Source: Verrucomicrobiia bacterium
GTDB taxonomy: Bacteria > Verrucomicrobiota > Verrucomicrobiia > Palsa-1439
Assembly: GCA_037441425.1 (NCBI GenBank)
Contig: JBBISF010000001.1
Coordinates: 69,068-133,067 of the forward strand
DNA: 64,000 nucleotides
Direction: 5' to 3'
Shown piece after piece: positions 1 through 41,734 of the stretch (position 1 is the stretch's first letter; every line of letters begins with the position of its first letter). A model generated the notes under the pieces. That model searched no databases, had not been told where the DNA came from, and saw only the letters and a program-made list of their open reading frames with translations. A program made the position numbers and the translations under genes.

Positions 1-578
1 AATTCCTGCTGAATCCGAAAACCGGTTGGGTTGCCGGTTGGCGCAGCCGTGATGGGGAACTGCACGACTACGCGTTTACTTGGGTCAACGGCGTCACGGC
101 CGCCTTCGGCTTATTGGACCAGCCCGTGGCGCGCCGGGCACTGCACGGGCTTGAAAAGCTGCGGCGCACACAACGCGTGGACTCCGGCTTCAGCGGTGTG
201 CCGTTCAACCTCTGGCCCATTCGCCGCGACGATCATATGCTGCCCAAAACGTGGGGCGTATTCCCGACCACGCCCACATTTGAGTTCTACACGGACGGCG
301 CGATGGGCGCGATTTTCGCGATCTATTACCTGCGGGCGCTGGCGGATTGCGGGTTGCGGCAATCGGCGCGGAAGTTGGCCAACGAAATGGCGGCCGGCTA
401 CGAGGCCGGGTTCTGGACGGGCGGCACCGGCAGCGGCGTCGAATTCCGCTCTTGGGATGGTTTGTGTACCGGCTACGAAGGCACGTTCGTCGGGAACTTT
501 GCTCCGTTGTACGGCATCGCCATTGAACAAGGTCTGATCAAACCTCCCACCCCCGAATGGTGGCCGGCGGGTGGTTGA
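1..578 (+). CDS. C-terminal fragment of a putative glycoside-hydrolase-like protein; gene begins upstream of the window
   Basis: The frame beginning at nt 3 is open to the window edge and reads as a globular protein (FLLNPKTGWVAGW...TWVNGVTAAFGLL...SWDGLCTGYEGTFVGNFAPLYGIAIEQGL). The listed 114..578 ORF only uses an internal TTG. The alternative 31..537 frame is low-complexity. Confidence 0.4.
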   Translation, partial: FLLNPKTGWVAGWRSRDGELHDYAFTWVNGVTAAFGLLDQPVARRALHGLEKLRRTQRVDSGFSGVPFNLWPIRRDDHMLPKTWGVFPTTPTFEFYTDGAMGAIFAIYYLRALADCGLRQSARKLANEMAAGYEAGFWTGGTGSGVEFRSWDGLCTGYEGTFVGNFAPLYGIAIEQGLIKPPTPEWWPAGG

Positions 579-10105: not shown

Positions 10106-11173
10106 TTGAATACATTCAAACTGAAGCGTTACACGGACAACCCCATCATCAGTCCCACCGCAGATTCATCGTGGGAAAATATCTGCACCTGCAATCCCGG
10201 GGCGTGGTGGGACGGTCGCCAAGTCCACTTACTCTACCGGGGCGGCCCGGACACTGACCAACACCCCATCCATTTCGGTCTGGCCGAGAGTACCGATGGT
10301 TTCCACTTCGCGCGCGTCTCGGGCCGGCCCGTCTTCAGTCCCGCGCCCGGCAGTTGGGACGGTGGCTGCATTGAAGACCCGCGCATTGTCCGGTTTGGCG
10401 ACACCTACTTTGTCACCTACGCTGCGCGGATGTTTCCGCCGGCCGCCTACTGGCGCAAGAAATTCCCCCTGAACGCCTTCAATCCGCCGTTGCCCCCGGA
10501 AGCGCCATTGGCCGCCCGCAAAAACCTCACCCGCTCCGGCTTGGCGTTGACGAAAGATTTTCGCGCGTGGCACCGGCTCGGCCCGCTTACCGCCGCCGAT
10601 CTCGACGATCGCGACGTAATCGTCTTCCCCGAACAGGTCGCCGGCCAGTTCGTCCTGCTCCATCGCCCCGGCAGTTGGGTGGGCCCCACCTACGGATGCG
10701 AACGCCCGTCCATCTGGATGTCGTTCAGCGACGACCTGTTGTGTTGGCGGAACGAGCACTTGCTCGCCCAACCGGTTTTCGATTGGGAATGCCGGAAGAT
10801 CGGCGGCAGCACTCCGCCCATCAAGACCACCAAAGGTTGGCTAACCCTCTACCACGGCGTCGACGACCAAATGATCTACCGCGTCGGGGCCATGCTCCTC
10901 GATCTGAAGAATCCTCTGCAAATCCTTGGTCGCACCCCCCAACCAATTCTGGAACCGGTTGCCGAATATGAGCGGGCCGGCCTGGTCCCTAATGTGGTCT
11001 TCCCCTGCGGGAATGTCGTCATCAACGGCACACTGTTCGTGTACTACGGCGGTGCCGACAAGGTTTGCTGTGTCGCCACATGCCCGTTGATGGACCTGGT
11101 CGAATACACCCTCGACCACCCGCCATTGCACACCCAGAGTACCAGCGCGCGCGGTCTCGGCATAGGACATTAA
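10106..11173 (+). CDS. GH130-family glycoside hydrolase / beta-mannoside phosphorylase
   Basis: NPGAWWDGRQVHLLYRGG...GLAESTDGFHF...WDGGCIEDPRIVRFGDTYFVTYAA is the GH130 five-bladed propeller signature. Confidence 0.8.
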   Translation: MNTFKLKRYTDNPIISPTADSSWENICTCNPGAWWDGRQVHLLYRGGPDTDQHPIHFGLAESTDGFHFARVSGRPVFSPAPGSWDGGCIEDPRIVRFGDTYFVTYAARMFPPAAYWRKKFPLNAFNPPLPPEAPLAARKNLTRSGLALTKDFRAWHRLGPLTAADLDDRDVIVFPEQVAGQFVLLHRPGSWVGPTYGCERPSIWMSFSDDLLCWRNEHLLAQPVFDWECRKIGGSTPPIKTTKGWLTLYHGVDDQMIYRVGAMLLDLKNPLQILGRTPQPILEPVAEYERAGLVPNVVFPCGNVVINGTLFVYYGGADKVCCVATCPLMDLVEYTLDHPPLHTQSTSARGLGIGH

Positions 11174-23030: not shown

Positions 23031-24416
23031 CTAGCGGATGGCGTCGGGATCAATACTGAACTTTTTGAGTTTGGCGTAGAGCGTCGTGCGGCTGATTTGC
23101 AGTTGTTCCGCCGTGCGTTTGATGTTGCCGGCGTGTTGCCGGAGGGTGCTGAGTAGGATTTGCTTCTCTGGTTCTTCGAGTTGATCCGCCAACCGGGGCG
23201 AAACCTGAGCGGAGGAGACTTGGGAGAGTCGCTTGGGTAAATCGGTTTGCTCCACCAGGGGCGATTTGGCGAGCACGACCGCCTGCAACACCACGTTTTC
23301 CAGCTCGCGGACGTTGCCCGGCCACCGATACGCGTTCATCAGCGCAATGGCCGGGTCGGTGAATCCGCGCACGTCTTTGTGGTGTTGCCGGCTGAACCGG
23401 CGGAGAAATTCCATCGCCAACAGAGGAATGTCTTCCACCCGTTCGCGCAGCGGCGGGACGCGGATTTCCACGACGTTCAGCCGGTGGAACAGGTCTTCCC
23501 GGAAACGTCCGTCCGCCACGCACTCTTCCAGTGCTTGGTTCGTTGCGGCGACAATCCGCACATCCACTGAAATTGGTTTCGCTCCTCCCACCCGCTCAAA
23601 GGTCCGGGTCTGCAAGACGCGCAGCAGTTTGGCCTGCACCCCCAGATCGATGTTGGAAACCTCGTCAAGGAACAGCGTGCCGCCGTTGGCCCGTTCGAAC
23701 CGGCCAATATGCCGGTCGGTCGCGCCGGTGAACGCGCCTTTTTCGTGGCCGAAGAGTTCGCTTTCCAACAATTCGCGCGCGAGCGCCGAGCAATCCATCG
23801 TCACCAGCGGTTTGCCATGCCGGGAACTGGCTTCGTGAATGGCCCGCGCCACCAACTCTTTGCCCGTGCCGGTTTCACCGAAGATCAACACGTTCGCGTA
23901 GCTATCGGCGATGGTCTGGATCAACTCGAAGATGTCCTGCATCTGCGCGTTGCGGCTGATGATGCCGTAGAATCCGGGGGCGGGTTCCGCCAGCAGACCC
24001 CGGTGTTGCGGATCGGCTAAATCCGCCCGCACGCTCCGTTGTCGTTGCTGAGCGGCTCGGATTACCGACTCGCGCACCGCCTCAATCGACGGCGCTTGTA
24101 GCCCGCGCTCTTGGTAATCAAAGACACCCAGTTTCGTAGCTTGCACGGCTTGAGTAACCGATGGTCTGGCCGTGCAGATGATGAACATCACATTGGGATG
24201 GATCTGCCGAACCTGTTCGAGGAACGCATCGCCGTTTGCACCGGGGAGGTTAATGTCGGCCACAAGAAGATCGATACCGCGTGCCTGCAACAACAACAGC
24301 GCATCATCAAACGTATGGGCCGAAAGCACTTCAAAGTTGTCTTTGATGAGCGCCTCAGACACACCCAACGTCCAAGACGCATCGGTGTCCAAGAGTAGCA
24401 CTTTGAACTTTGGCAT
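23031..24416 (-). CDS. sigma-54-dependent Fis-family response regulator (NtrC-like: REC + AAA+ + HTH)
   Basis: Receiver KVLLLDTD...LLVADINLPG. Walker A GETGTGKELVARAIH. GAFTGA motif HEKGAFTGA. C-terminal Fis HTH RTTLYAKLKKF. Start ATG at 24416 (MPKFKV). Confidence 0.85.
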   Translation of the reverse strand: MPKFKVLLLDTDASWTLGVSEALIKDNFEVLSAHTFDDALLLLQARGIDLLVADINLPGANGDAFLEQVRQIHPNVMFIICTARPSVTQAVQATKLGVFDYQERGLQAPSIEAVRESVIRAAQQRQRSVRADLADPQHRGLLAEPAPGFYGIISRNAQMQDIFELIQTIADSYANVLIFGETGTGKELVARAIHEASSRHGKPLVTMDCSALARELLESELFGHEKGAFTGATDRHIGRFERANGGTLFLDEVSNIDLGVQAKLLRVLQTRTFERVGGAKPISVDVRIVAATNQALEECVADGRFREDLFHRLNVVEIRVPPLRERVEDIPLLAMEFLRRFSRQHHKDVRGFTDPAIALMNAYRWPGNVRELENVVLQAVVLAKSPLVEQTDLPKRLSQVSSAQVSPRLADQLEEPEKQILLSTLRQHAGNIKRTAEQLQISRTTLYAKLKKFSIDPDAIR

Positions 24417-24482
24417 GTTCAGCCGTCGCTTATGAGTGTCAACCGTCGCCGGGAACTTTCTCGGACCGACTTGGCAGATTCT

Positions 24483-24497
24483 CTGGACAGTGTCCAG
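24483..24497. promoter_or_regulatory. perfect 7-1-7 palindrome CTGGACA-G-TGTCCAG upstream of the sigma-54 regulator gene
   Basis: It lies about 70-80 nt upstream of the minus-strand ATG at 24416. Confidence 0.35.
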
Positions 24498-24641
24498 CAA
24501 CCGATGAGCCAGACCCAGATGAACAGAGCCAATCCAGCCGCATGGCAGCGCATGTTCATAGCCATCCGAGCCTTGTTTGTCAAGGCTGCCGGAGCGGTTA
24601 AGACAGCTTACCGGGACTAGGATGACACAGCGGTGAACATG

Positions 24642-32322: not shown

Positions 32323-34542
32323 TCACGCTGTATACGGCAGCGGGAATTGGGCGGTGAGGGCGCGTACTTTGCCGCGCACCTTGTCGGCAACGGCCAGGTT
32401 GCCGGGATTCTCCAGCGCTTCGGTCATCAACCCGGCAATCTGCTCCATCTCCGGCTCTTTCATGCCGCGGGTGGTGACGGCGGGCGTGCCGACACGGATG
32501 CCGGAGGCGACCATCGGTTTCTCGGGATCGAACGGAATCATATTCTTGTTCACCGTGATCCCGGCTTGGTCGAGCGCCTCCTGCGCAACCTTGCCGGTCA
32601 ATTTCTTCGGCCGCAGATCCACCAACATCAAATGATTGTCCGTGCCGCCACTGACGATCCGGAAACCGCGTTTGCTCAGGGCGGCCGCCAATACGGCGGC
32701 GTTCTTGACGATCTGGCGTTGGTAGTCCTTGAACTCCGGCCGCAACGCTTCCTGGAAACAAACGGCCTTGGCGGCAATGATGTGCATGAGCGGGCCGCCT
32801 TGGATGCCGGGGAAGATTTGGGAGTTCACCGCTTTCGCGTGCGCTTCCTTGCAGAGAATCAATCCCGCGCGCGGGCCGCGCAACGTCTTGTGCGTCGTGC
32901 TGGTCACGATGTCGGCGTGTGGAACCGGGTTCGCATGCACGCCGCCCGCGACCAGCCCGGCAATGTGCGCCATGTCCACCACCAACGCCGCGCCCACGGC
33001 CTTCGCGATGGCCGCAAATCCGGCAAAATCGAGCGTGCGCGGGTAGGCACTGGCTCCGACGACGATGATGCGCGGTTTCTCGGACTGAGCGAGCCGCGCC
33101 ACTTCGTCCATGTCGATGCGTTCCGTCTGCTGGCTCACGCCGTACGGCACGATCCGAAACAATCGGCCGGAGAAATTGACCGACGCGCCGTGCGTGAGGT
33201 GTCCGCCGAAGTTCAGGCTCATCGCCAAAATCGTGTCGCCCGGCTTGGCCAACGCGAAGTACGCGGCCATGTTGGCCTGGCTGCCGGAATGGGGCTGGAC
33301 GTTGGCATGTTCCGCGCCGAACAGTTGTTTGGCACGATCAATCGCCAATTGCTCCGCGACGTCCACAACCTCACAGCCACCGTAGTAGCGCTTACCGGGA
33401 TAACCTTCGGCGTATTTATTCGTAAGCACGCTGCCGGCCGCTTCGAGGACGGACGGGTTGACGAAATTCTCGCTGGCGATCAGCTCGATGTTTTCCTGTT
33501 GGCGTTGCTTCTCGCGTTGGACAACCGTGAAGATTTCCGGGTCGGTTTGCGCCAGCGCCGAACTCTTTTTCAGAGTCAGACCGGGTTTAAGCGGCGGCTG
33601 ATCCATCTTCTGCACCCGCCGCGCGTGCCGGCCGCCCGCAAACGGTGTCCTGAGCCAGACATCGAGAATGCGGACGGCCTGCTCGTTGTTCAGCTCGATG
33701 CCGGACAGGACAAGGACGTTGGCGTCGTTGTGTTCGCGACTGAGGCGCGCCCATTGCTCACTGCCGACCATCGCCGCGCGCACGCCGACGACACGGTTGG
33801 CGGCGATGCTCATGCCAATGCCACTCTTGCAGATCAATACGCCCCGCTCGGAATTGCCGGCGGCGACTTCCTCGGCAACCGCAAACGCGTAGTCCGGGTA
33901 ATCGCACGGCTCGGTCGAATTCGTGCCGAGATCGGTGAACTGATAACCTTGTTTGGTCAGCCACTCTTTCAACGCCGCCTTCATCTCCACGCCGCCGTGA
34001 TCGGCCCCCAACACGATGCGCGGCGTGACGGTCTGGGTTTCAGTGGTTTCGCTCAAGGTTTTCTTCATCACACGTTCCGTTTGATCAATGAACTCCAACA
34101 CCGAGGGCAAGGCGTCGCGGATTTGGTCGCGCGTTTGCCGGTACACTCCCACCGGCGAGCCGATCGGGTCGGCAATGTCCCGACTCTCGTCCGGCGGCAC
34201 TTCCTGAAACTCCCGCAGCACGAAAATCTTCTCCGCCGCCTCCGGGTACAACGCCTGCAGCAAATCCTGCTGCTGCCGCGTCATCGTGAACACGAAATCC
34301 GCCTGCTCGATCATCCCGGCCCGCAACGCCAAGCTGCGGTGATGCGTCAGATTACCGCCCAACTCCGCCATCACGTCCACGGCCAAATCGGTGGCCGGTT
34401 GCCCATCCACCGCGCCGATGCCGGCTGAGACGCACCGGACATCGCCGCGTTTCCGCGCGAGCTTGTCCATCAACGCTTCCGCCATTGGACTGCGACAGAC
34501 GTTGCCCGTGCACACAAACAAAATGGTTTTCACTTTTGCCAT
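32323..34542 (-). CDS. tri-domain fusion of low-molecular-weight phosphotyrosine/arginine phosphatase, ribose-5-phosphate isomerase B and serine hydroxymethyltransferase
   Basis: aa 1-157: [14 protein letters not shown] is the CX5R P-loop of LMW-PTP. aa about 175-305: [21 protein letters not shown]...[17 protein letters not shown] is RpiB/LacAB. aa about 313-739: ELIASENF...THKTLRGPR is SHMT with the PLP lysine. One uninterrupted 739-aa frame. In-frame Met codons at 34071 and 33606 mark the domain starts. Confidence 0.8.
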
Positions 34543-35685: not shown

Positions 35686-36963
35686 TTATTTCCGCCGCGC
35701 CAACGCGCGGGCCGCAATATCGCGCCGGTACTGCGCCCCGTCAAAATGAATCCGTTCCACCGCCTCATACACGCGCGTCACCGCCCCGGCAATGTCCGCC
35801 CCGAGCGCCGTCACGCCGAGCACCCGGCCGCCGTCCGTGACAATCGCGCCTTTGCCACCGCGCCGCGTCCCGGCATGGAACACCGACACGTTAGCCAACG
35901 CCTCCGCCTCCTTCAATCCGGTAATCGGCTTGCCCTTCTGATAACTGCCGGGATAACCGCCCGCGGCCAGCACCACGCACACTGCCGCGTCCTTCTTCCA
36001 CCGCAACTCCACCTCCGCCAACCGGCCCGCCGCCGTCGCTTCCAACGCGTCCAGCAAATCCGAATCCAACCGCGGCAACACTGCCTGCGTCTCCGGGTCG
36101 CCAAACCGCGCGTTAAATTCCAGTACCTTCGGCCCGTCCTGCGTCAACATCAGCCCCGCGTACATCACCCCGCGAAACTCAATCCCCTGCGCCCGCAACC
36201 CGGCCAGCGTCCGCTCAAAAACTTGGTCAATGACCGGCTGATGCTTCTTCAACACCGCCGGCGTGGGCGAATACGCGCCCATCCCCCCCGTGTTCGGCCC
36301 GGCATCATTGTCGTAAATCCGCTTATGATCCTGCGCCGACGCCAACACCCGGAACGTCTTCCCGTCCACCAACGCCATCACGGACGCCTCTGCGCCGGAC
36401 AAACATTCCTCCAACAAAATCCGCTTCCCGGCGTCGCCGAAAATCCGGCGCTCCAGCATGTCCCCAATTGCCTGCTCGGCTTCCGCGACGGACTCCGCGA
36501 CGATCACTCCCTTGCCGGCCGCCAATCCATCTGCCTTCACCACCACCGGCGCGCCCGTCTTCCGCAGATACGCCCGCGCCTTGCCGGCCTCCTCGAAAAT
36601 CTCCGCCCGGCCCGTCGGCACCCCGGCCTGCAACAATATCTGTTTGCAGAATACCTTACTCCCCTCCAACTGCGCCGCGCGCTTCGTCGGCCCGAACACC
36701 CGGAGCCCCTTGGCCTGCAGCGCATCCACAATCCCGGCGCACAACGGCGCTTCCGGTCCCACCACGGTGAAATCGATCTGCTCCTTCACCGCCAACGCGA
36801 CCAGTTGACCGATATCTGTGGCCGCGATCGGCACGCACTCTGCCTGTTGGGCGATGCCGGCATTACCGGGTGCGCAGTAGAGTTTGGTGACACGTTTGCT
36901 TTGGGCCAATTTCCAAACGAGCGCATGCTCCCGCCCGCCGCCGCCGATGATCAGGACTTTCAT
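35686..36963 (-). CDS. purD: phosphoribosylamine--glycine ligase
   Basis: MKVLIIGGGGREHALVWKLAQS...ATP-grasp core. 425 aa. Confidence 0.9.
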   Translation of the reverse strand: MKVLIIGGGGREHALVWKLAQSKRVTKLYCAPGNAGIAQQAECVPIAATDIGQLVALAVKEQIDFTVVGPEAPLCAGIVDALQAKGLRVFGPTKRAAQLEGSKVFCKQILLQAGVPTGRAEIFEEAGKARAYLRKTGAPVVVKADGLAAGKGVIVAESVAEAEQAIGDMLERRIFGDAGKRILLEECLSGAEASVMALVDGKTFRVLASAQDHKRIYDNDAGPNTGGMGAYSPTPAVLKKHQPVIDQVFERTLAGLRAQGIEFRGVMYAGLMLTQDGPKVLEFNARFGDPETQAVLPRLDSDLLDALEATAAGRLAEVELRWKKDAAVCVVLAAGGYPGSYQKGKPITGLKEAEALANVSVFHAGTRRGGKGAIVTDGGRVLGVTALGADIAGAVTRVYEAVERIHFDGAQYRRDIAARALARRK

Positions 36964-37073
36964 AACTCGCGTGTGGCGACTCTAGGGGAACCCGCGAACG
37001 AGAGCAATGTGGAAAAGCGTCCGGCAGGAATTGTCACGACCCTCACCGAGCGCTGTCCGCCCCCCCCGGGTCT

Positions 37074-37850
37074 TCAGCAGGCACCCGTTAGGCGGACGGG
37101 GTAAAGAGGCGACTTCGCAAACTTCACGACACCATCCTCGATCAAGGTCACCCACTTGTTGTTGAAATCGACACAGTAGTTGGTGCTGCGCGGCTTGATC
37201 TTGTTCGGCTTCCATTTCACCACGCCCTCGCTGTCCGGCGAGGCGTGCGGCGTGTGGCCGACAATTTGATTGAACCCGTCAATCGGTTCGAATTCCCGGT
37301 TGAAATCCAGCCACGTGATCCCGCCCGGCCGGCGGCCGTAACCGCCGCCGCGCGCCTGACCGGCCATGAAGATGGGGTCGGGATTGCCATTCAGGAGGTT
37401 GTGCCGGCCAATCTCACATACTCGTTTGATGTAATTGAGTTCCACGCCATGCACCGGATGACTGAACCAGCGTTGGTGAATGCCCGCATGACTGAATAAA
37501 ATCCCCTGCGAACAATGACACAGTCCCATCCGCTCCCAATCCCCGGCTGTCAGCACGGCGACAATCGCCTCCCTCTTCGCGTCCGTATTGTCGCTGCAGA
37601 ACGCGTACGGACAACCGTACCCGTACCAGACATCATGATTGCCCAGTAAATGGATGCGCTTGGGTTTGCCCAACGACTCCTTTAACCACCGCGCCGTTTC
37701 CCCCGCCTGTTCGGGCGTGTCACGAATCCCATCAAAGTAATCGCCGAGAAAGATCACCTCATCATACGTCTGCACCGCGAGGTAAGTTTCCACCCACTGA
37801 TACCGGTGATGCAAATCGGAGATGATAATCGAGCGCATGTGAAAGCCCAT
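37074..37850 (-). CDS. calcineurin-like metallophosphoesterase
   Basis: IISDLHH, FLGDYFDG and LLGNHD are metal-binding motifs. Start at MGFHMRS; the first 28 aa of the ORF are Cys-rich readthrough. Confidence 0.7.
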   Translation of the reverse strand: MGFHMRSIIISDLHHRYQWVETYLAVQTYDEVIFLGDYFDGIRDTPEQAGETARWLKESLGKPKRIHLLGNHDVWYGYGCPYAFCSDNTDAKREAIVAVLTAGDWERMGLCHCSQGILFSHAGIHQRWFSHPVHGVELNYIKRVCEIGRHNLLNGNPDPIFMAGQARGGGYGRRPGGITWLDFNREFEPIDGFNQIVGHTPHASPDSEGVVKWKPNKIKPRSTNYCVDFNNKWVTLIEDGVVKFAKSPLYPVRLTGAC

Positions 37851-37881
37851 CAGCCGCGTCCGGAAGCCCCCACCCTTGCGC

Positions 37882-38046
37882 TCATAATTCGGGCAACAAG
37901 TGGGTGCGCGTCGCGAGCATCCACACCACCCCAAAGATGATGCCGAAGATCCCCACCACCATCAGCGGCAGGCCGGCCCCCTCCGCTTCCTGTCTTCGTC
38001 CATAAACGAAAATCACGATGCTCACCAGCAGTGTGACGATGTCCAT
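37882..38046 (-). CDS. small two-TM membrane protein (hypothetical)
   Basis: MDIVTLLVSIVIFVYG...LPLMVVGIFGIIFGVVWMLA lies upstream of and co-oriented with the phosphoesterase. Confidence 0.3.
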   Translation of the reverse strand: MDIVTLLVSIVIFVYGRRQEAEGAGLPLMVVGIFGIIFGVVWMLATRTHLLPEL

Positions 38047-38099
38047 AAACCGCTTCCCCGCAGTTGTAGCAACCGCCGCCGCCCCCGGCAATCCTGTTA

Positions 38100-39611
38100 T
38101 TGCCGGTCCGTTTGGGCAAGTTCTGTCAACGGGTAACGTCGCTTGTCTCTCAACCGGACCGCGACTACACTGCCGGTGTGAGTCCGCTGGAGAAAATCAA
38201 CGATTGGCTGTGGGAATTGCCAGCGGGGTACAAGTCGGGAATGCGGGTGCCGGGGCGGATTTATGCCTCGGAGAAAATGCTGGAGCACATCGTCGGCGAT
38301 AACTGCCTGGAACAGGTGGCGAATGTCGCGTTCTTGCCGGGGATCCAGAAGTATTCGCTGGCGATGCCGGATATTCATTGGGGGTACGGGTTTCCCATCG
38401 GCGGGTGTTGCGCGACCGATCCCCGGCAAGGCGGCGTGATTTCTCCGGGCGGGGTCGGGTACGACATCAACTGCGGGGTCCGGTTGATGCGGACGAATTT
38501 GACGCAGGCGGAGGTCGCGCCGCGGATCAAGGAATTGGTGGCGCAGTTGTTCCGCGATATTCCGTGCGGGCTGGGGCGCGGGAGCGATCTGCAGTTGACG
38601 GTGGAGGACGAGCGGAAATGCGTGCAGCAGGGCGCGCATTGGGCGGTGGAACATGGGTTCGGCAGCGCCGATGATCTGGATTTCATCGAGGAACGAGGCC
38701 GGTTGGCGGAGGCGGAGCCGTCGAACATCACCACCCGGGCGTTGGAACGCGGGAAAGGTCAACTCGGTTCGCTCGGCAGCGGGAATCATTTTCTGGAAGT
38801 GCAGGTGGTGGACGAAGTGTTCCACGCGGACGCCGCGGAGGTGATGGGGTTGGCGCAGGGACAGGTGACGGTGATGATTCATTGCGGGTCGCGCGGGTTT
38901 GGGTATCAGGTGTGCGACGATTATCTGAAGGTGTTGCGGGATGCGCCGCGCAAGTATGGGATTCATCTGCCCGACCGGCAATTGGTGAGCGCACCGGTGC
39001 ACTCACCGGAAGGCGAGGAGTATCTCACTTCAATGCGGTGCGCGGCGAATTATGCGTTTGCCAACCGGCAGGTGTTGATGGCCAAGGCGGAGAAGGCGTT
39101 CCGGCACGCGCTGCGGATTTCGCCGAAGGAACTGGGGATGGAATTGGTGTACGACGTGCCGCATAACATCGCGAAGTTGGAGGAGCATGGCGGGCGGACG
39201 GTGTGCGTCCACCGGAAAGGCGCGACGCGGGCGTTTCCGCCGGGGCATCCGCTGATTCCGGTGCGGTACCGGAGCATCGGGCAACCAGTGTTGGTGCCGG
39301 GGGATATGGGCCGGTATTCGTTTGTGCTGGTGGGAACGCAAGGCGCGATGGAACAAACGTGGGGCACGGTATGCCACGGCGCGGGCCGGATGATGAGCCG
39401 GGCGCGGGCGAAGAAGGAACACAGTTTCCAAGACCTGCAACGGACGATGGATGAACGCGGGGTGGTGATGATGGCCCAAGGGCGAGGGACGGCGTTGGAG
39501 GAGGCGCCGTGGGCGTATAAAGACGTGGAAAACGTGGTGGATGTTTGTCATAATGCCGGGCTGGCGAGGAAAGTGGCCCGCTTGCGGCCTATCGGCGTGG
39601 TGAAAGGTTAA
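38100..39611 (+). CDS. rtcB: RNA-splicing ligase RtcB (3'-phosphate/5'-hydroxyl nucleic acid ligase)
   Basis: AMPDIHWGYGFPIGG, GVGYDINCGVRL, GSGNHFLEVQ and HNIAKLEEH are the RtcB metal and GTP site motifs. Confidence 0.85.
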   Translation: MPVRLGKFCQRVTSLVSQPDRDYTAGVSPLEKINDWLWELPAGYKSGMRVPGRIYASEKMLEHIVGDNCLEQVANVAFLPGIQKYSLAMPDIHWGYGFPIGGCCATDPRQGGVISPGGVGYDINCGVRLMRTNLTQAEVAPRIKELVAQLFRDIPCGLGRGSDLQLTVEDERKCVQQGAHWAVEHGFGSADDLDFIEERGRLAEAEPSNITTRALERGKGQLGSLGSGNHFLEVQVVDEVFHADAAEVMGLAQGQVTVMIHCGSRGFGYQVCDDYLKVLRDAPRKYGIHLPDRQLVSAPVHSPEGEEYLTSMRCAANYAFANRQVLMAKAEKAFRHALRISPKELGMELVYDVPHNIAKLEEHGGRTVCVHRKGATRAFPPGHPLIPVRYRSIGQPVLVPGDMGRYSFVLVGTQGAMEQTWGTVCHGAGRMMSRARAKKEHSFQDLQRTMDERGVVMMAQGRGTALEEAPWAYKDVENVVDVCHNAGLARKVARLRPIGVVKG

Positions 39612-40255
39612 TGGATAGCACCGAAAAAATCCCCCTGAATATCGCGGTGGATGCGGCGTCCAAATCTGGTGATGAACGCGCCCGAGTGGAACCGTCGGAC
39701 CGCGAAGTGGTGGAGCGTTGCCAGCGGGGCGAACTCCGCGCCTATGAGTTGCTGGTCAACCGTTACCGGCAACGGGTCTATGCGCTGGCGTATGGCATGT
39801 TGCGCAACGAACCGGATGCCACCGATGTCGCCCAAGAAGCCTTCGTGCGCGCCTGGCAGGGCATCCGCCGCTTCCGCAAGAACGCGTCGTTCTACACGTG
39901 GATTTACCGGATCACCACCAATCTCTGTATTGATTTTGTCCGGAAACGAGATCGTCAGCCGACGACGACGTTCGAGGAAGCGCTGGGTCCTGACACCGAC
40001 GCGGACGTGGCGGAGCCACCCTCGACCAATCCACTGCCCACGCAAGAGGTGGAGCGCAAGGAATTGCGGGAACAGATTGACGCCGCGCTGGCCGAGCTTT
40101 CACCCGAGCATCGCGCCGTTGTGCAACTCCGGGAGTTTGAGGGACTGGAGTATGCCGAGATCGCCAAGGTGGTCGGCTGCTCCATCGGCACGGTCATGTC
40201 GCGACTGCATTACGCGCGGAAACATTTACAGAAACTGTTGAAGGACGACTTATGA
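39611..40255 (+). CDS. ECF-family RNA polymerase sigma factor (sigma-E-like)
   Basis: Region 2 YRQRVYALAYGMLRNEPDATDVAQEAFVRAW and region 4 EFEGLEYAEIAKVVGCSIGTVMSRL. The ATG overlaps the rtcB TAA (TAATG). Confidence 0.85.
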   Translation: MDSTEKIPLNIAVDAASKSGDERARVEPSDREVVERCQRGELRAYELLVNRYRQRVYALAYGMLRNEPDATDVAQEAFVRAWQGIRRFRKNASFYTWIYRITTNLCIDFVRKRDRQPTTTFEEALGPDTDADVAEPPSTNPLPTQEVERKELREQIDAALAELSPEHRAVVQLREFEGLEYAEIAKVVGCSIGTVMSRLHYARKHLQKLLKDDL

Positions 40256-40815
40256 AGGTGCATCAATCCAAATACCTGAGCGCGTTGCTCGACGGCCAAC
40301 TCGGCGGCCTGCGGCGGTGGCGCGTGGTGCGGCACGTCCGCGTCTGCCCGACTTGCGCCGCGGAATATCGCAAGCAGCGGCACGTCCGCCGGCTGTTGCG
40401 GGCCAACCCGGCGCCGGCGACCATGGACGATGCGCCGGAGTTTTTCTGGTCGAAAGTCAAAGCGGAGATCGAACGGCGCGGTGATGAGGTCGTCGCCACG
40501 CCGTATCCCCGGCTGAGTTGGCGCGACCGGCTCTCCCAACATCAAGCCGCATGGGCGACGGTAACCGTGTTGCTGGTGGCGTTGCTGGCCGGGTTCTGGA
40601 CATGGCGGCCCCCCCGGCCAATTGCCGGCAAGGCGCCTGTCGCGGCGGCAAAACCGCTGGCCGTCGTGGAGCGCGTGACGACCTCGTTGCCCGACACTGT
40701 CGCGACCCCGATTCAGTCCAAGGAAGCCGGCATGACGGTGATCTGGGTTTCCGGCCTGCCGTGGACACCCAACATGACCGTCATGAAAACCCTCTACGCC
40801 AGCCTGGATTCCTGA
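40252..40815 (+). CDS. anti-sigma factor (zinc-finger ZAS-like, single TM)
   Basis: ATGA overlap with the sigma gene. Motif HVRVCPTCAAEYRKQRH. TM helix AAWATVTVLLVALLAGFWTW. Confidence 0.7.
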   Translation: MKVHQSKYLSALLDGQLGGLRRWRVVRHVRVCPTCAAEYRKQRHVRRLLRANPAPATMDDAPEFFWSKVKAEIERRGDEVVATPYPRLSWRDRLSQHQAAWATVTVLLVALLAGFWTWRPPRPIAGKAPVAAAKPLAVVERVTTSLPDTVATPIQSKEAGMTVIWVSGLPWTPNMTVMKTLYASLDS

Positions 40816-40818
40816 CCT

Positions 40819-41241
40819 ATGCGTTGGCCGATCCTGGCAATCTCGTTGCTGCTGCTGGCCGCCACCACCGAGGCCGCTTCCGTTCGCGTCCGCCTCATTC
40901 GCGCTTCCAATCAAGAGGCCGTTAGCGATCCCAGACTCGACGATATCGCCCCTAAACTGAAAGCTGTTTTTGGGTACACGCATTACGATCAACAGGGGAT
41001 TGCCCACGGCATTCTCCAACAAGGCAAACGCCTCAGGCTTTACCCGGGCGAAGGATTTACCCTGTTTGTGCGCCCCAAAAGCGCGGCCGGGAAAGTCCAC
41101 GAACTGGAAGTCGAGTTGTACTCCGGCAAGGTTTCCGTCACCAAAGCCACCGTCAAGATCGCCGAGAACAGTTCCATTCTCATCAATGGCCCAGAAGTCG
41201 GCGCAACGTTGATCATCATTTCCATGACCGTCTTGGAATGA
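40819..41241 (+). CDS. secreted hypothetical protein (third gene of the ECF operon)
   Basis: Signal peptide MRWPILAISLLLLAATTEAAS. It starts 4 nt after the anti-sigma gene stop. Confidence 0.5.
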   Translation: MRWPILAISLLLLAATTEAASVRVRLIRASNQEAVSDPRLDDIAPKLKAVFGYTHYDQQGIAHGILQQGKRLRLYPGEGFTLFVRPKSAAGKVHELEVELYSGKVSVTKATVKIAENSSILINGPEVGATLIIISMTVLE

Positions 41242-41290
41242 TCGTGGCCGGCATTGACAAGCCGCCCACCCCGCCCCTACTCTGCCCGGC

Positions 41291-41734
41291 ATGTTGAACG
41301 ACAAAATCGTCGCGGACCTGAAAGCCGCCATGCTCGCCAAAGACGCCCCGCGTCTGGCCACGTTGCGCCTGCTCAAATCGGCCATCGAATACTACAAGAT
41401 CGAAAAGAAACAGGAACAGCTCACCGACGCCGACGTGACCGCCGTCATCAAGAAACAGATCAAACAACGGCAGGATTCCATCGAAAGTTTCGAGAAGGGC
41501 GGGCGCGCCGATTTGGCCGACAAGGAGAAGGCCGAGTTGGCGATTCTCAAGTCGTACCTACCGGAAGAACTCGCGCCGGCCCAGATTGAAGAAATCATCG
41601 CTGCCACCATCACCGCGCTGGGCGCCACCACCAAGGCGGACATGGGCAAGGTGATGAACGCCGTCCAAACCAAGCTTGCCGGCCGTGCGGACAACCGACT
41701 CGTCAGCCAAATCGTCGCCGCCAAGCTCATCTAG
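41291..41734 (+). CDS. GatB/YqeY domain protein
   Basis: ADLKAAMLAKDAPRLATLRLLKSAIEYYKIEKK...LAILKSYLPEEL is a YqeY signature. Confidence 0.8.
   Translation: MLNDKIVADLKAAMLAKDAPRLATLRLLKSAIEYYKIEKKQEQLTDADVTAVIKKQIKQRQDSIESFEKGGRADLADKEKAELAILKSYLPEELAPAQIEEIIAATITALGATTKADMGKVMNAVQTKLAGRADNRLVSQIVAAKLI

Follow-up and report, generated by a model that had tools for sequence, protein, structure and literature searches.

Why does a gene for an RNA ligase directly precede, and overlap, the genes of an ECF sigma factor and its anti-sigma factor? In the 64,000-nt stretch of DNA analyzed here (the window), rtcB, an ECF sigma gene, a gene for a zinc-finger membrane anti-sigma factor, and a gene for a 140-aa exported protein (sec140) form four head-to-tail ORFs on the (+) strand; the last three are referred to below as the triad, or cassette. 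An earlier note on this DNA had proposed that RNA repair is wired here to an extracytoplasmic or redox stress signal. Our analysis did not support this proposal: rtcB is preceded by a promoter motif of the housekeeping type, and rtcB and the triad have been lost independently. The explanation that we favor, and consider probable though by no means certain, is that rtcB and the triad are two separable modules with housekeeping-type promoters, held side by side by entangled expression signals. The features of the locus are as follows:

38143–38171, (+) strand: putative promoter P1; −35 TTGTCT (38143–38148), 17-nt spacer, −10 TACACT (38166–38171)
38178–39611, (+) strand: rtcB, GTG start; 477 aa, predicted long archaeal/eukaryal-type 3′-phosphate/5′-OH RNA ligase
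39526–39554, (+) strand: putative promoter P2, within rtcB codons 450–459; −35 TGGAAA (39526–39531), 17-nt spacer, extended −10 TGT CATAAT (39546–39554)
39611–40255, (+) strand: ECF (group 4) sigma gene; 214 aa, RpoE/AlgU-like, ATG overlapping the rtcB stop codon
40252–40815, (+) strand: class I anti-sigma gene; 187 aa, ATGA overlap with the sigma gene
40819–41241, (+) strand: sec140, the third triad gene; 140 aa, exported, all-beta, with no Pfam family
41254–41283, (+) strand: putative yqeY promoter; TTGACA (41254–41259), 18-nt spacer, TACTCT (41278–41283), 7 nt before the ATG
41291–41734, (+) strand: yqeY, encoding a GatB/YqeY-domain protein (PF09424, E = 1.6e-49)

The gene boundaries largely agree with those described earlier. 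The rtcB stop and sigma start codons overlap as TAATG at 39609–39613, and the sigma and anti-sigma genes overlap as ATGA at 40252–40255; the secreted 140-aa ORF does follow the anti-sigma gene, but 3 nt rather than 4 nt separate the anti-sigma stop codon from its ATG. The rtcB start had been placed at TTG 38100 and is corrected here to GTG 38178, which is fixed by an in-frame stop codon 9 nt 5′ of the aligned start in relatives and by the alignment with Pyrococcus horikoshii RtcB, which starts at residue 3. A terminator between rtcB and the sigma gene had been named as a finding that would argue against a shared transcript; we found none on the (+) strand anywhere between rtcB and yqeY, and the 33–51-nt rtcB-sigma spacers of a sister sub-clade showed no RNA structure above that of shuffled sequences (z of 0.2 to −1.8). 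Rfam and tRNA scans returned only tRNA-Asp and tRNA-Val, both downstream on the (−) strand. Since rtcB and the sigma gene are contiguous, overlapping, and free of an intervening terminator, the cassette is likely co-transcribed with rtcB by read-through from P1. Synteny shows that yqeY is the conserved downstream neighbor whether the cassette is present or absent.

The window RtcB matched PF01139 over the entire profile (positions 1–426 of 426; E = 9e-172, 572.5 bits) and P. horikoshii RtcB over residues 3–477 (E = 4e-165). All six of the residues D95, C98, H203, H234, H329, and H404 (P. horikoshii numbering), which we take to be the metal-binding and guanylylation residues of RtcB, are identical in the alignment, and the aligned motifs are GYDINCG, GSGNHFLEV, MIHCGSRG, DVPHNI, and CHGAGR. 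As judged from its sequence, the gene thus encodes a long archaeal-type RtcB with predicted GTP-dependent 3′-P/5′-OH ligation activity. The observation that neither rtcA nor rtcR is nearby held across the whole 64-kb window: a tblastn search with E. coli RtcA gave no match better than E = 3.3, and the only sigma-54 activator gene in the window (23031–24500, (−) strand, 14 kb away) encodes Response_reg, Sigma54_activat, and HTH_8 domains, i.e., a receiver domain and not the RtcR N-terminus. Likewise, the −24/−12 promoter pattern (TGGCAC-N5-TTGC, up to two mismatches) had no (+) strand match from 36843 to 38539, and its count across the window equaled that expected by chance. However, the contrast with the canonical rtcA/RtcR arrangement is not telling, because a long archaeal-type RtcB usually partners with archease. 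Like the product of rtcB in the E. coli/Salmonella rtcBA-RtcR system, the window RtcB is an RtcB-family ligase with a complete catalytic set, but its identity to E. coli RtcB is just 29% and it belongs to the long (477 aa) archaeal type, while its gene lacks rtcA, RtcR, and the −24/−12 promoter and has instead a housekeeping-type promoter and a predicted leaderless mRNA. A second system for comparison is the archease-RtcB “tRNA splicing” operon, known from archaea and from many bacteria (Desai et al. 2014, PMC3973293). Its RtcB is of the same subtype as that of the window. Of 48 RtcB loci of other phyla, 35 have archease immediately 5′ of rtcB, whereas the window and its subgroup lack archease (throughout the 64 kb, in the case of the window) and carry the ECF triad 3′ of rtcB. 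In a sister sub-clade, the gene order is rlmN-archease-rtcB-sigma-anti-sigma-sec140-yqeY.

The sigma factor has regions 2 and 4 only (Sigma70_r2, Sigma70_r4_2, and Sigma70_ECF matches) and scored 128.1 bits against TIGR02937 (cutoff 42.9). It fell below every NCBIfam equivalog cutoff, those of RpoE, SigW, and SigE included; the best equivalog was TIGR02939 (RpoE; 146.1 bits, cutoff 236), and the closest solved relatives are AlgU, RpoE, SigE, and SigW. The anti-sigma factor consists of an N-terminal zinc-finger domain with predicted zinc binding (H4, H28-x3-C32-x2-C35; zf-HC2, 26.6 bits, cutoff 22.2), one hydrophobic segment at about residues 99–118, and a C-terminal part of ~65 aa; its weak best NCBIfam matches include RsrA. 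All anti-sigma orthologues share HxxxCxxC and, in the C-terminal part, VIWVxGxP, with H28-x3-C32-x2-C35 found in 25 of the 25 orthologues listed, each of which also has an N-terminal His or Cys. The third protein, sec140, was modeled by AF2 with a pLDDT of 90.3, the AXA-type signal peptide being the sole low-confidence stretch; it showed no PDB sequence match and no sequence relation to RseB/MucB, and together with 43 homologues it had no Pfam or NCBIfam match. In every context examined, sec140 adjoins the sigma and anti-sigma genes.

This organization resembles RpoE-RseA-RseB and AlgU-MucA-MucB in its order of sigma factor, single-pass anti-sigma factor, and exported third protein, and, by analogy, sec140 could modulate the outer domain of the anti-sigma factor. 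Unlike RseA and MucA, which are not known to have a zinc-finger HxxxCxxC domain, the window anti-sigma factor carries one, and an autoregulatory promoter of the sigma-E type is hypothetical for the triad. The zf-HC2 domain and conserved HxxxCxxC are shared with the ZAS pairs (RsrA-SigR, ChrR-SigE, RsiW-SigW, and RslA-SigL), from which the window protein differs by its membrane anchor, conserved extracytoplasmic tail, and dedicated exported partner. The motif HxxxCxxC alone is insufficient to infer redox sensing.

Next, we compared the locus across about 60 related genomes, in which the related sequences are all MAGs or metagenome contigs. The earlier note would have counted a linkage confined to this genome against its model, but the link between rtcB and the cassette is widespread across one clade of Verrucomicrobia from soil and freshwater; 24 species-level genomes and no fewer than 25 metagenome contigs carry it. 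Specifically, the order rtcB-sigma-anti-sigma-sec140 is present in the window and in 23 of 27 clade genomes, and rtcB lies directly upstream of 21 metagenomic sigma orthologues. In comparison, none of 53 RtcB loci from other phyla has an ECF triad 3′ of rtcB. We found no paper linking RtcB to ECF sigma factors, and the text of the ECF reclassification paper makes no mention of RtcB, ligase, tRNA, YqeY, or Verrucomicrobia.

An ECF-type promoter (AAC...CGT) had been expected upstream of rtcB; what the comparison revealed there is P1, a motif of the housekeeping type (TTGnnn-17-TAnnnT). Its register is identical in all 26 loci of the clade, with TTG at −35 to −33, TA at −12 and −11, and T at −7 conserved, while the surrounding DNA is unalignable: in these loci the flank from −145 to −46 is at random identity (25.6%), and 12 different contexts occur upstream of P1 among 21 loci. 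Matches to GGAAC/TGAAC-N15–19-CGT/GTC between −1500 of rtcB and the end of yqeY in the 26 loci occupied no conserved position and were scattered, mostly within coding sequence conserved at the protein level; this search used a generic ECF consensus, which may not be the specificity of this sigma factor. P1 ends 6 nt before GTG 38178, and the predicted rtcB mRNA would therefore be leaderless. A strict leaderless-promoter pattern occurs four times in the window at a 5–8-nt offset, compared with zero to two times at control offsets, which is only suggestive.

The earlier note had also held that an independent promoter between rtcB and the sigma gene would speak against its operon, and for the window's subgroup the comparative evidence points to such a promoter, P2. 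This element (TGGAAA-17-TGTCATAAT in the subgroup) was found by consensus scan, and transcription is predicted to start near 39561, leaving a leader of ~50 nt to the sigma ATG. The window-wide promoter scan was not enriched over shuffled sequences (3 found, 1.5 expected, SD 1.2), and synonymous entropy in 20-codon windows across the whole clade showed no dip at the rtcB 3′ end. The windowed entropy thus spoke against an internal promoter, but a per-column test within the subgroup reversed this. Among 75 Y-ending and 50 R-ending conserved two-fold columns (mean T/A, 0.36 and 0.43, respectively), only four synonymous sites in rtcB are 100% A/T-fixed (H458, N459, E451, and K448), the sample being 18 cassette-bearing genomes that are related, so that a fixed site does not represent 18 independent events. 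Three of these sites (H458, N459, and E451) fall in the P2 hexamers, and the fourth, K448, is found 3 nt 5′ of the −35 hexamer. At the P2 sites, the cassette-less sisters carry AAC (3/3) and GAG (2/3); cassette-bearing L120 has CATAAC at the −10. P2 is absent from subgroups A2 and B (CATCAA, CACCAA, and GACAGT).

Clean deletions separate the two modules in both directions: there was one loss of the cassette, and there were four or more losses of rtcB. The cassette-less lineages (L003, L005, L007, and L008, as judged at the rtcB-yqeY locus) are monophyletic and nested among cassette-bearing ones; they retain a scar in which TGATGGA, from the start of the sigma gene, and GAATGA, from the end of sec140, are joined to the yqeY promoter, which is conserved and forms the right-hand edge of the deletion. 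P1 is kept in three of them (L003, L007, and L008). Conversely, L091, L107, and L122 have lost rtcB and retain the P2 element ([−35]-N17-CAYAAT) before the sigma gene; L122 has no P1 at all, and its −35 has been rebuilt as TTGAAC directly after a PhoU-like gene. In L113, from a subgroup without P2, what is left of the deleted rtcB is its promoter P1, the GTG, and 34 codons in frame, together with the TGATG overlap; since promoter, start, frame, and overlap outlived rtcB, read-through seems obligatory in that subgroup. Stand-alone sigma/anti-sigma/sec140 triads also occur in unrelated contexts without rtcB (L094 and L095/L096), that of L094 being preceded by TTGAAT-N18-TCTAAT with a G before the −10.

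Taken together, these comparisons indicate a lineage-specific, promoter-entangled adjacency. In the mechanism that we propose, rtcB would form one module, expressed as a leaderless mRNA from housekeeping-type P1, and the triad would form a self-contained ECF module in which the membrane-anchored anti-sigma factor holds the sigma factor; sec140 probably acts with the short outer domain of the anti-sigma factor to form the sensing end. The triad of the window's subgroup would be driven by its own P2, within the last 30 codons of rtcB, and would also receive P1 read-through transcripts because no terminator separates rtcB from the sigma gene. In subgroups without P2, its expression would need P1 together with stop-start translational coupling. 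The two modules would have stayed adjacent because the expression signals of the triad are entangled with rtcB and not because RtcB belongs to an ECF regulon.

That P1 and P2 fire, and which sigma factor reads them, we infer from sequence conservation; the ECF sigma factor could in principle read both, as several −35 hexamers, including some of P1, are TTGAAT or TTGAAC. The alternative that P2 is the autoregulatory promoter of the ECF sigma factor, creating a self-amplifying unit that starts in rtcB and leaves rtcB outside the regulon, is unlikely in our judgment but deserves attention. A position directly upstream of the sigma gene is usual for such promoters, the −35 GGAAAA(C), and TTGAAC in L122, loosely resemble the RpoE-type GGAAC, the sigma factor itself being RpoE/AlgU-like, and the TCTAAT of L094 resembles the −10 of E. 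coli sigma-E (TCTAA); decay upon cassette loss is predicted equally. However, P2 conserves the positions typical of a −10 for the primary sigma factor (CATAAT, with A at 2 and T at 3 and 6). There is no conserved GTC motif, the base before the hexamer being C or T, nor is there a CGT-type −10, and no shared ECF motif was found elsewhere in the loci. It is rather improbable that P2 is non-functional and that all four genes form a single operon from P1 only, with the triad expressed by read-through and translational coupling. The stop/start overlaps, the survival of P1, frame, and overlap in L113, the windowed synonymous variability, and the subgroups without P2 fit such an operon, but the site-specific codon test favors P2, and L107 and L122 keep the P2 element alone before the sigma gene.

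The model of the earlier note, in which rtcB heads an ECF-dependent, autoregulated operon with a ZAS-like anti-sigma factor that senses an extracytoplasmic or redox signal, appears highly improbable. Its structural part stands, i.e., contiguity, overlap, and a zf-HC2 domain with HxxxCxxC, but ECF control of rtcB is not supported. In its favor are the tight conserved linkage, the complete HxxxCxxC with an N-terminal His or Cys, the TTGAAT or TTGAAC hexamers of some P1 copies, and the oxidation sensitivity of the RtcB active-site cysteine, as described in one report (PMC12263435). Against it, P1 conserves TTG and TA...T rather than AAC and CGT and survives in the lineage that deleted the sigma gene, no GGAAC-N15–19-CGT/GTC lies at a conserved place, rtcB and the triad were lost independently, and the triad is found elsewhere without rtcB. 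Very unlikely, too, in our view is a functional entanglement. In this reading, with the triad promoter lying in rtcB codons and translation of the sigma gene restarting where rtcB stops on a leaderless mRNA, the supply of sigma factor relative to anti-sigma factor would track rtcB transcription and translation. An envelope-sensing ECF switch would then be gated by the condition of the RNA and translation machinery, or else a single stress pathway would include both RtcB and the ECF regulon.

Such functional entanglement, if true, would connect RNA repair with ECF signaling in a way that has no precedent, and the model of the earlier note would imply the first RNA-repair enzyme under an envelope/redox-stress sigma factor. 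What the evidence favors instead is an ordinary ECF module physically entangled with a housekeeping RNA-ligase gene. P2 would then be a clear case from nature of a promoter lying within coding sequence, one that constrains codons and decays once the downstream genes are lost. Entanglement of this kind can hold genes in a constant order although they share no function, whether or not stop-start coupling on a leaderless mRNA contributes; this is a caution for guilt-by-association annotation. A further outcome is a widespread uncharacterized ECF triad, numbering about 900 clusters at 50% identity, in which a small exported beta-protein is the third component. A word-indexed search gave 5 matches with sec140 alone and, with an alignment, 44 that were all close; the wide family surfaced only in an exhaustive profile search, which yielded 910 cluster representatives at E ≤ 1e-3, nearly all of them 135–200 aa in length.

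On the (+) strand, positions 38100-41241 of the window hold four contiguous ORFs, encoding RtcB and a cassette or triad of an ECF sigma factor, an anti-sigma factor and a 140-aa exported protein (sec140). The stop-start overlaps described in the earlier note, TAATG at 39609-39613 (rtcB/sigma) and ATGA at 40252-40255 (sigma/anti-sigma), were confirmed, and the 140-aa ORF directly follows the anti-sigma gene as claimed, but its ATG lies 3 nt, not 4 nt, from the anti-sigma stop. Searches of Pfam and NCBIfam bore out the proposed identities of RtcB (PF01139, E = 9e-172), the ECF sigma factor (regions 2 and 4; TIGR02937 above cutoff) and the zinc-type anti-sigma factor (zf-HC2 match), while sec140 matched no family in either database. 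The rtcB start, formerly placed at 38100, had to be moved to the GTG at 38178 (477 aa); in relatives, the aligned start has an in-frame stop codon 9 nt ahead of it. This RtcB aligns with P. horikoshii RtcB from residue 3 at the N-terminus, with six of six catalytic residues conserved, and is a full family member of the archease-associated long type that lies outside any rtcBA/RtcR system. Indeed, as the first reading had it, no rtcA or rtcR is nearby: RtcA is not encoded in the whole 64 kb, and the single sigma-54 activator (23031-24500) is an NtrC-type response regulator. Neither an archease gene in the 64-kb window nor a -24/-12 promoter upstream of rtcB was found. Two ORFs are divergent from rtcB, and neither adjoins rtcB in any related locus examined:

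Within 37074-38091, (−) strand: possible membrane protein, 54-69 aa, with weak DUF3188-like matches
Within 37074-38091, (−) strand: calcineurin-like metallophosphoesterase

An RtcB scan of species-representative genomes yielded 80 loci. Downstream of rtcB, 23 verrucomicrobial MAGs whose RtcB is 74-88% identical carry orthologues of sigma (50-75% identity), anti-sigma (27-54%) and sec140 (24-49%), usually with yqeY next, and a metagenome scan with sigma added 21 further contigs with rtcB directly upstream; all relatives compared are MAGs or metagenome contigs. Genomes of this group come from peat, bog and groundwater samples, and SRR11582168 contains the sequence of the window itself. The linkage is thus not unique to this genome, a possibility that the earlier note had entertained. 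By comparison, none of 53 RtcB loci of other phyla has cassette genes within 6 kb, profile searches included. Because 23 MAGs and 21 contigs share the linkage and 0 of 53 loci from other phyla do, the comparison indicates that it is real and old and confined to one clade. At the rtcB-sigma junction, the window's subgroup has a 1-nt overlap, versus a 7- to 51-nt gap elsewhere. Archease directly precedes rtcB in 35 of 48 testable loci from other phyla, and the order in a sister sub-clade is gyrA-rlmN-archease-rtcB-sigma-anti-sigma-sec140-yqeY. The rlmN-archease-rtcB-[triad]-yqeY string in three loci of this sub-clade (L084, L086 and L088) groups several RNA-related genes; at the distant locus L095 the triad is again 3′ of rlmN, with a 212-aa hypothetical protein replacing archease and rtcB. 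One locus, L015 (DYDC01000166.1), is labelled Methylacidiphilum sp., and its RtcB and cassette cluster within the clade of uncultured peat and groundwater Verrucomicrobiia; the taxonomic label of this bin may be wrong.

Each module also occurs in the absence of the other. In four loci (L003, L005, L007 and L008) that group together as a single clade amid cassette-bearing lineages, yqeY is directly 3′ of rtcB and the cassette is gone; the cassette-less MAGs are PLTX01, CAWJFL01, CAVQMY01 and JBKQMH01. The 53-nt rtcB-yqeY spacer is a scar comprising the sigma start (TGATGGA), the last sec140 codons (GAATGA) and the yqeY promoter, and this composition argues that the triad was excised whole, as a unit, with the putative rtcB promoter (P1) left in place. 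The converse, loss of rtcB with the triad kept, was found in four contigs and apparently arose independently in each. In L091 (3600-3765), P1 is fused to the last ~45 rtcB codons, now frameshifted, while just a short element is left ahead of sigma in L107 (1-212) and L122 (2330-2594), in the latter directly 3′ of a PhoU-like gene. In L113 (1500-1665), P1, the GTG start and the TGATG overlap survive, along with 20 codons from the rtcB N-terminus and 12 from its C-terminus, still in frame; what is left is a 34-codon mini-ORF that has a predicted leaderless start and overlaps sigma.

An exhaustive sec140 profile search drew 910 cluster representatives under a threshold of E ≤ 1e-3, of which 175 also passed E ≤ 1e-10, and almost all measured 135-200 aa. 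In every readable context sec140 lies 3′ of an ECF sigma gene and a presumed anti-sigma gene. The latter encodes zf-HC2 in most cases, while its product in L088/L089 and L095 matches no Pfam family; HxxxCxxC, a single hydrophobic segment and a C-terminal VIWVxGxP are kept in all anti-sigma orthologues. The C-terminal domain of the window's anti-sigma factor spans residues 120-187 or so. Triads occur with rtcB (L084, L086, L088, L093) and without it (L091, L094, L095/L096), being flanked in L094 by response regulators on one side and a lipid A acyltransferase on the other and located in L095/L096 3′ of rlmN and a hypothetical gene. Stand-alone triads have promoter-like sites of their own.

Two candidate promoters emerged from sequence comparison:

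38143-38171, (+) strand: P1, at the head of rtcB, from the locus alignment; TTGTCT (38143-38148), 17 nt, TACACT (38166-38171), 6 nt, GTG; predicted transcript 5′ end at 38178
39526-39554, (+) strand: P2, embedded in the rtcB 3′ end and also flagged by a consensus scan; TGGAAA (39526-39531), 17 nt, TGT CATAAT (39546-39554); predicted transcript 5′ end near 39561

Alignment of 26 loci on the start codon revealed a common TTG at -35 to -33 and TA...T at -12, -11 and -7, with random identity (25.6%) at -145 to -46. The A and T positions invariant in P1 coincide with those that primary sigma factors recognise, and leaderless genes are typified by a -10 hexamer that stops 6-8 nt short of the start codon. 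The same architecture precedes yqeY (TTGACA-18-TACTCT, 7 nt, ATG). On the (+) strand, TTGnnn-16..18-TAnnnT ending 5-8 nt before a start was seen at rtcB, yqeY (41254-41291), a MOT1-type transporter (43351) and an ORF at 10430; these four matches at the 5- to 8-nt offset compare with 0-2 at control offsets, and this lineage may make frequent use of leaderless mRNAs. The 3-kb flank upstream of rtcB shows 12 unrelated contexts in the 21 loci compared. Across L002-L029, the DNA just 5′ of the rtcB promoter is a rearrangement breakpoint; on the other side, beyond yqeY, the downstream flank sorts into just three groups.

As for an independent promoter between rtcB and the sigma gene, which the earlier note had considered, comparative evidence points to one, P2, in the window's subgroup. 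What L091, L107 and L122 retain reads [TGGCCA / TGGAAA / TTGAAC]-N17-CA(C/T)AAT, with TG in front. In the window this element is P2, and it falls in rtcB codons E451 and C457-H458-N459. Among 18 cassette-bearing genomes of the subgroup, related to one another, 75 conserved Y-ending two-fold columns had a mean T fraction of 0.36, with 100% T at H458 and N459 only, and 50 R-ending columns had a mean A fraction of 0.43, with 100% A at E451 and K448 only, the latter 3 nt upstream of the -35 hexamer. In cassette-less sisters, N459 is AAC in 3/3 and E451 is GAG in 2/3. The -10 variants among 25 listed cassette-bearing subgroup sequences were CATAAT (20), CATCAT (3), CACAAT (1) and CATAAC (1). A windowed entropy test along rtcB missed this 6-nt signal. 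P2 is absent from other subgroups, which fits L113, a member of one, having had to keep P1 and coupling.

Taken together, these comparisons indicate two separable modules, rtcB and the ECF triad. The expression signals of the triad would be entangled with rtcB, in the window's subgroup because P2 lies inside the 3′ end of rtcB and in other subgroups through dependence on P1 and stop-start coupling, and such entanglement would let the junction survive amid reshuffled flanks with no shared function needed. Read-through co-transcription of the triad from P1 is likely, since no terminator or structured spacer separates the genes. Nothing indicates that the ECF sigma factor drives rtcB or that RNA repair is wired to stress, as first proposed: the promoters look housekeeping-like, P1 outlives the cassette, and a search for the ECF-type promoter suggested for rtcB and sigma showed no conserved ECF-type or sigma-54 motif among the loci searched. 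The main alternative is that P2 would be a classical ECF autoregulatory promoter, in which case rtcB would still stay outside the regulon.

The triad layout resembles RpoE-RseA-RseB and AlgU-MucA-MucB. Unlike in those systems, the sigma factor scores below every equivalog cutoff and the anti-sigma factor is of the ZAS type, and sec140 is unrelated to RseB. A literature search found no paper linking RtcB to an ECF sigma factor; the comparison thus yields a lineage-specific rtcB-triad arrangement and an uncharacterised ECF triad.

RtcB proteins universally end in ...VKG, and the codons used for it, GTG AAA GGT, contain a Shine-Dalgarno-like AAAGG (window 39603-39607) that lies 4-8 nt ahead of whichever start codon comes after the rtcB stop. 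Any gene placed downstream would thereby have a ready-made ribosome-binding site. In the sister sub-clade (L018, L019, L022 and L024), a palindrome, GCCACGTGGC, recurs in the 33- to 43-nt rtcB-sigma spacer, with a T-run after it, right next to the sigma ATG; the region folds no better than shuffles, and the palindrome could be a protein-binding site. Elsewhere in the window, a single 739-aa ORF (32323-34542, (−) strand) is an unusual triple fusion of a low-molecular-weight phosphotyrosine phosphatase, an RpiB/LacAB ribose-5-phosphate isomerase and a full serine hydroxymethyltransferase.
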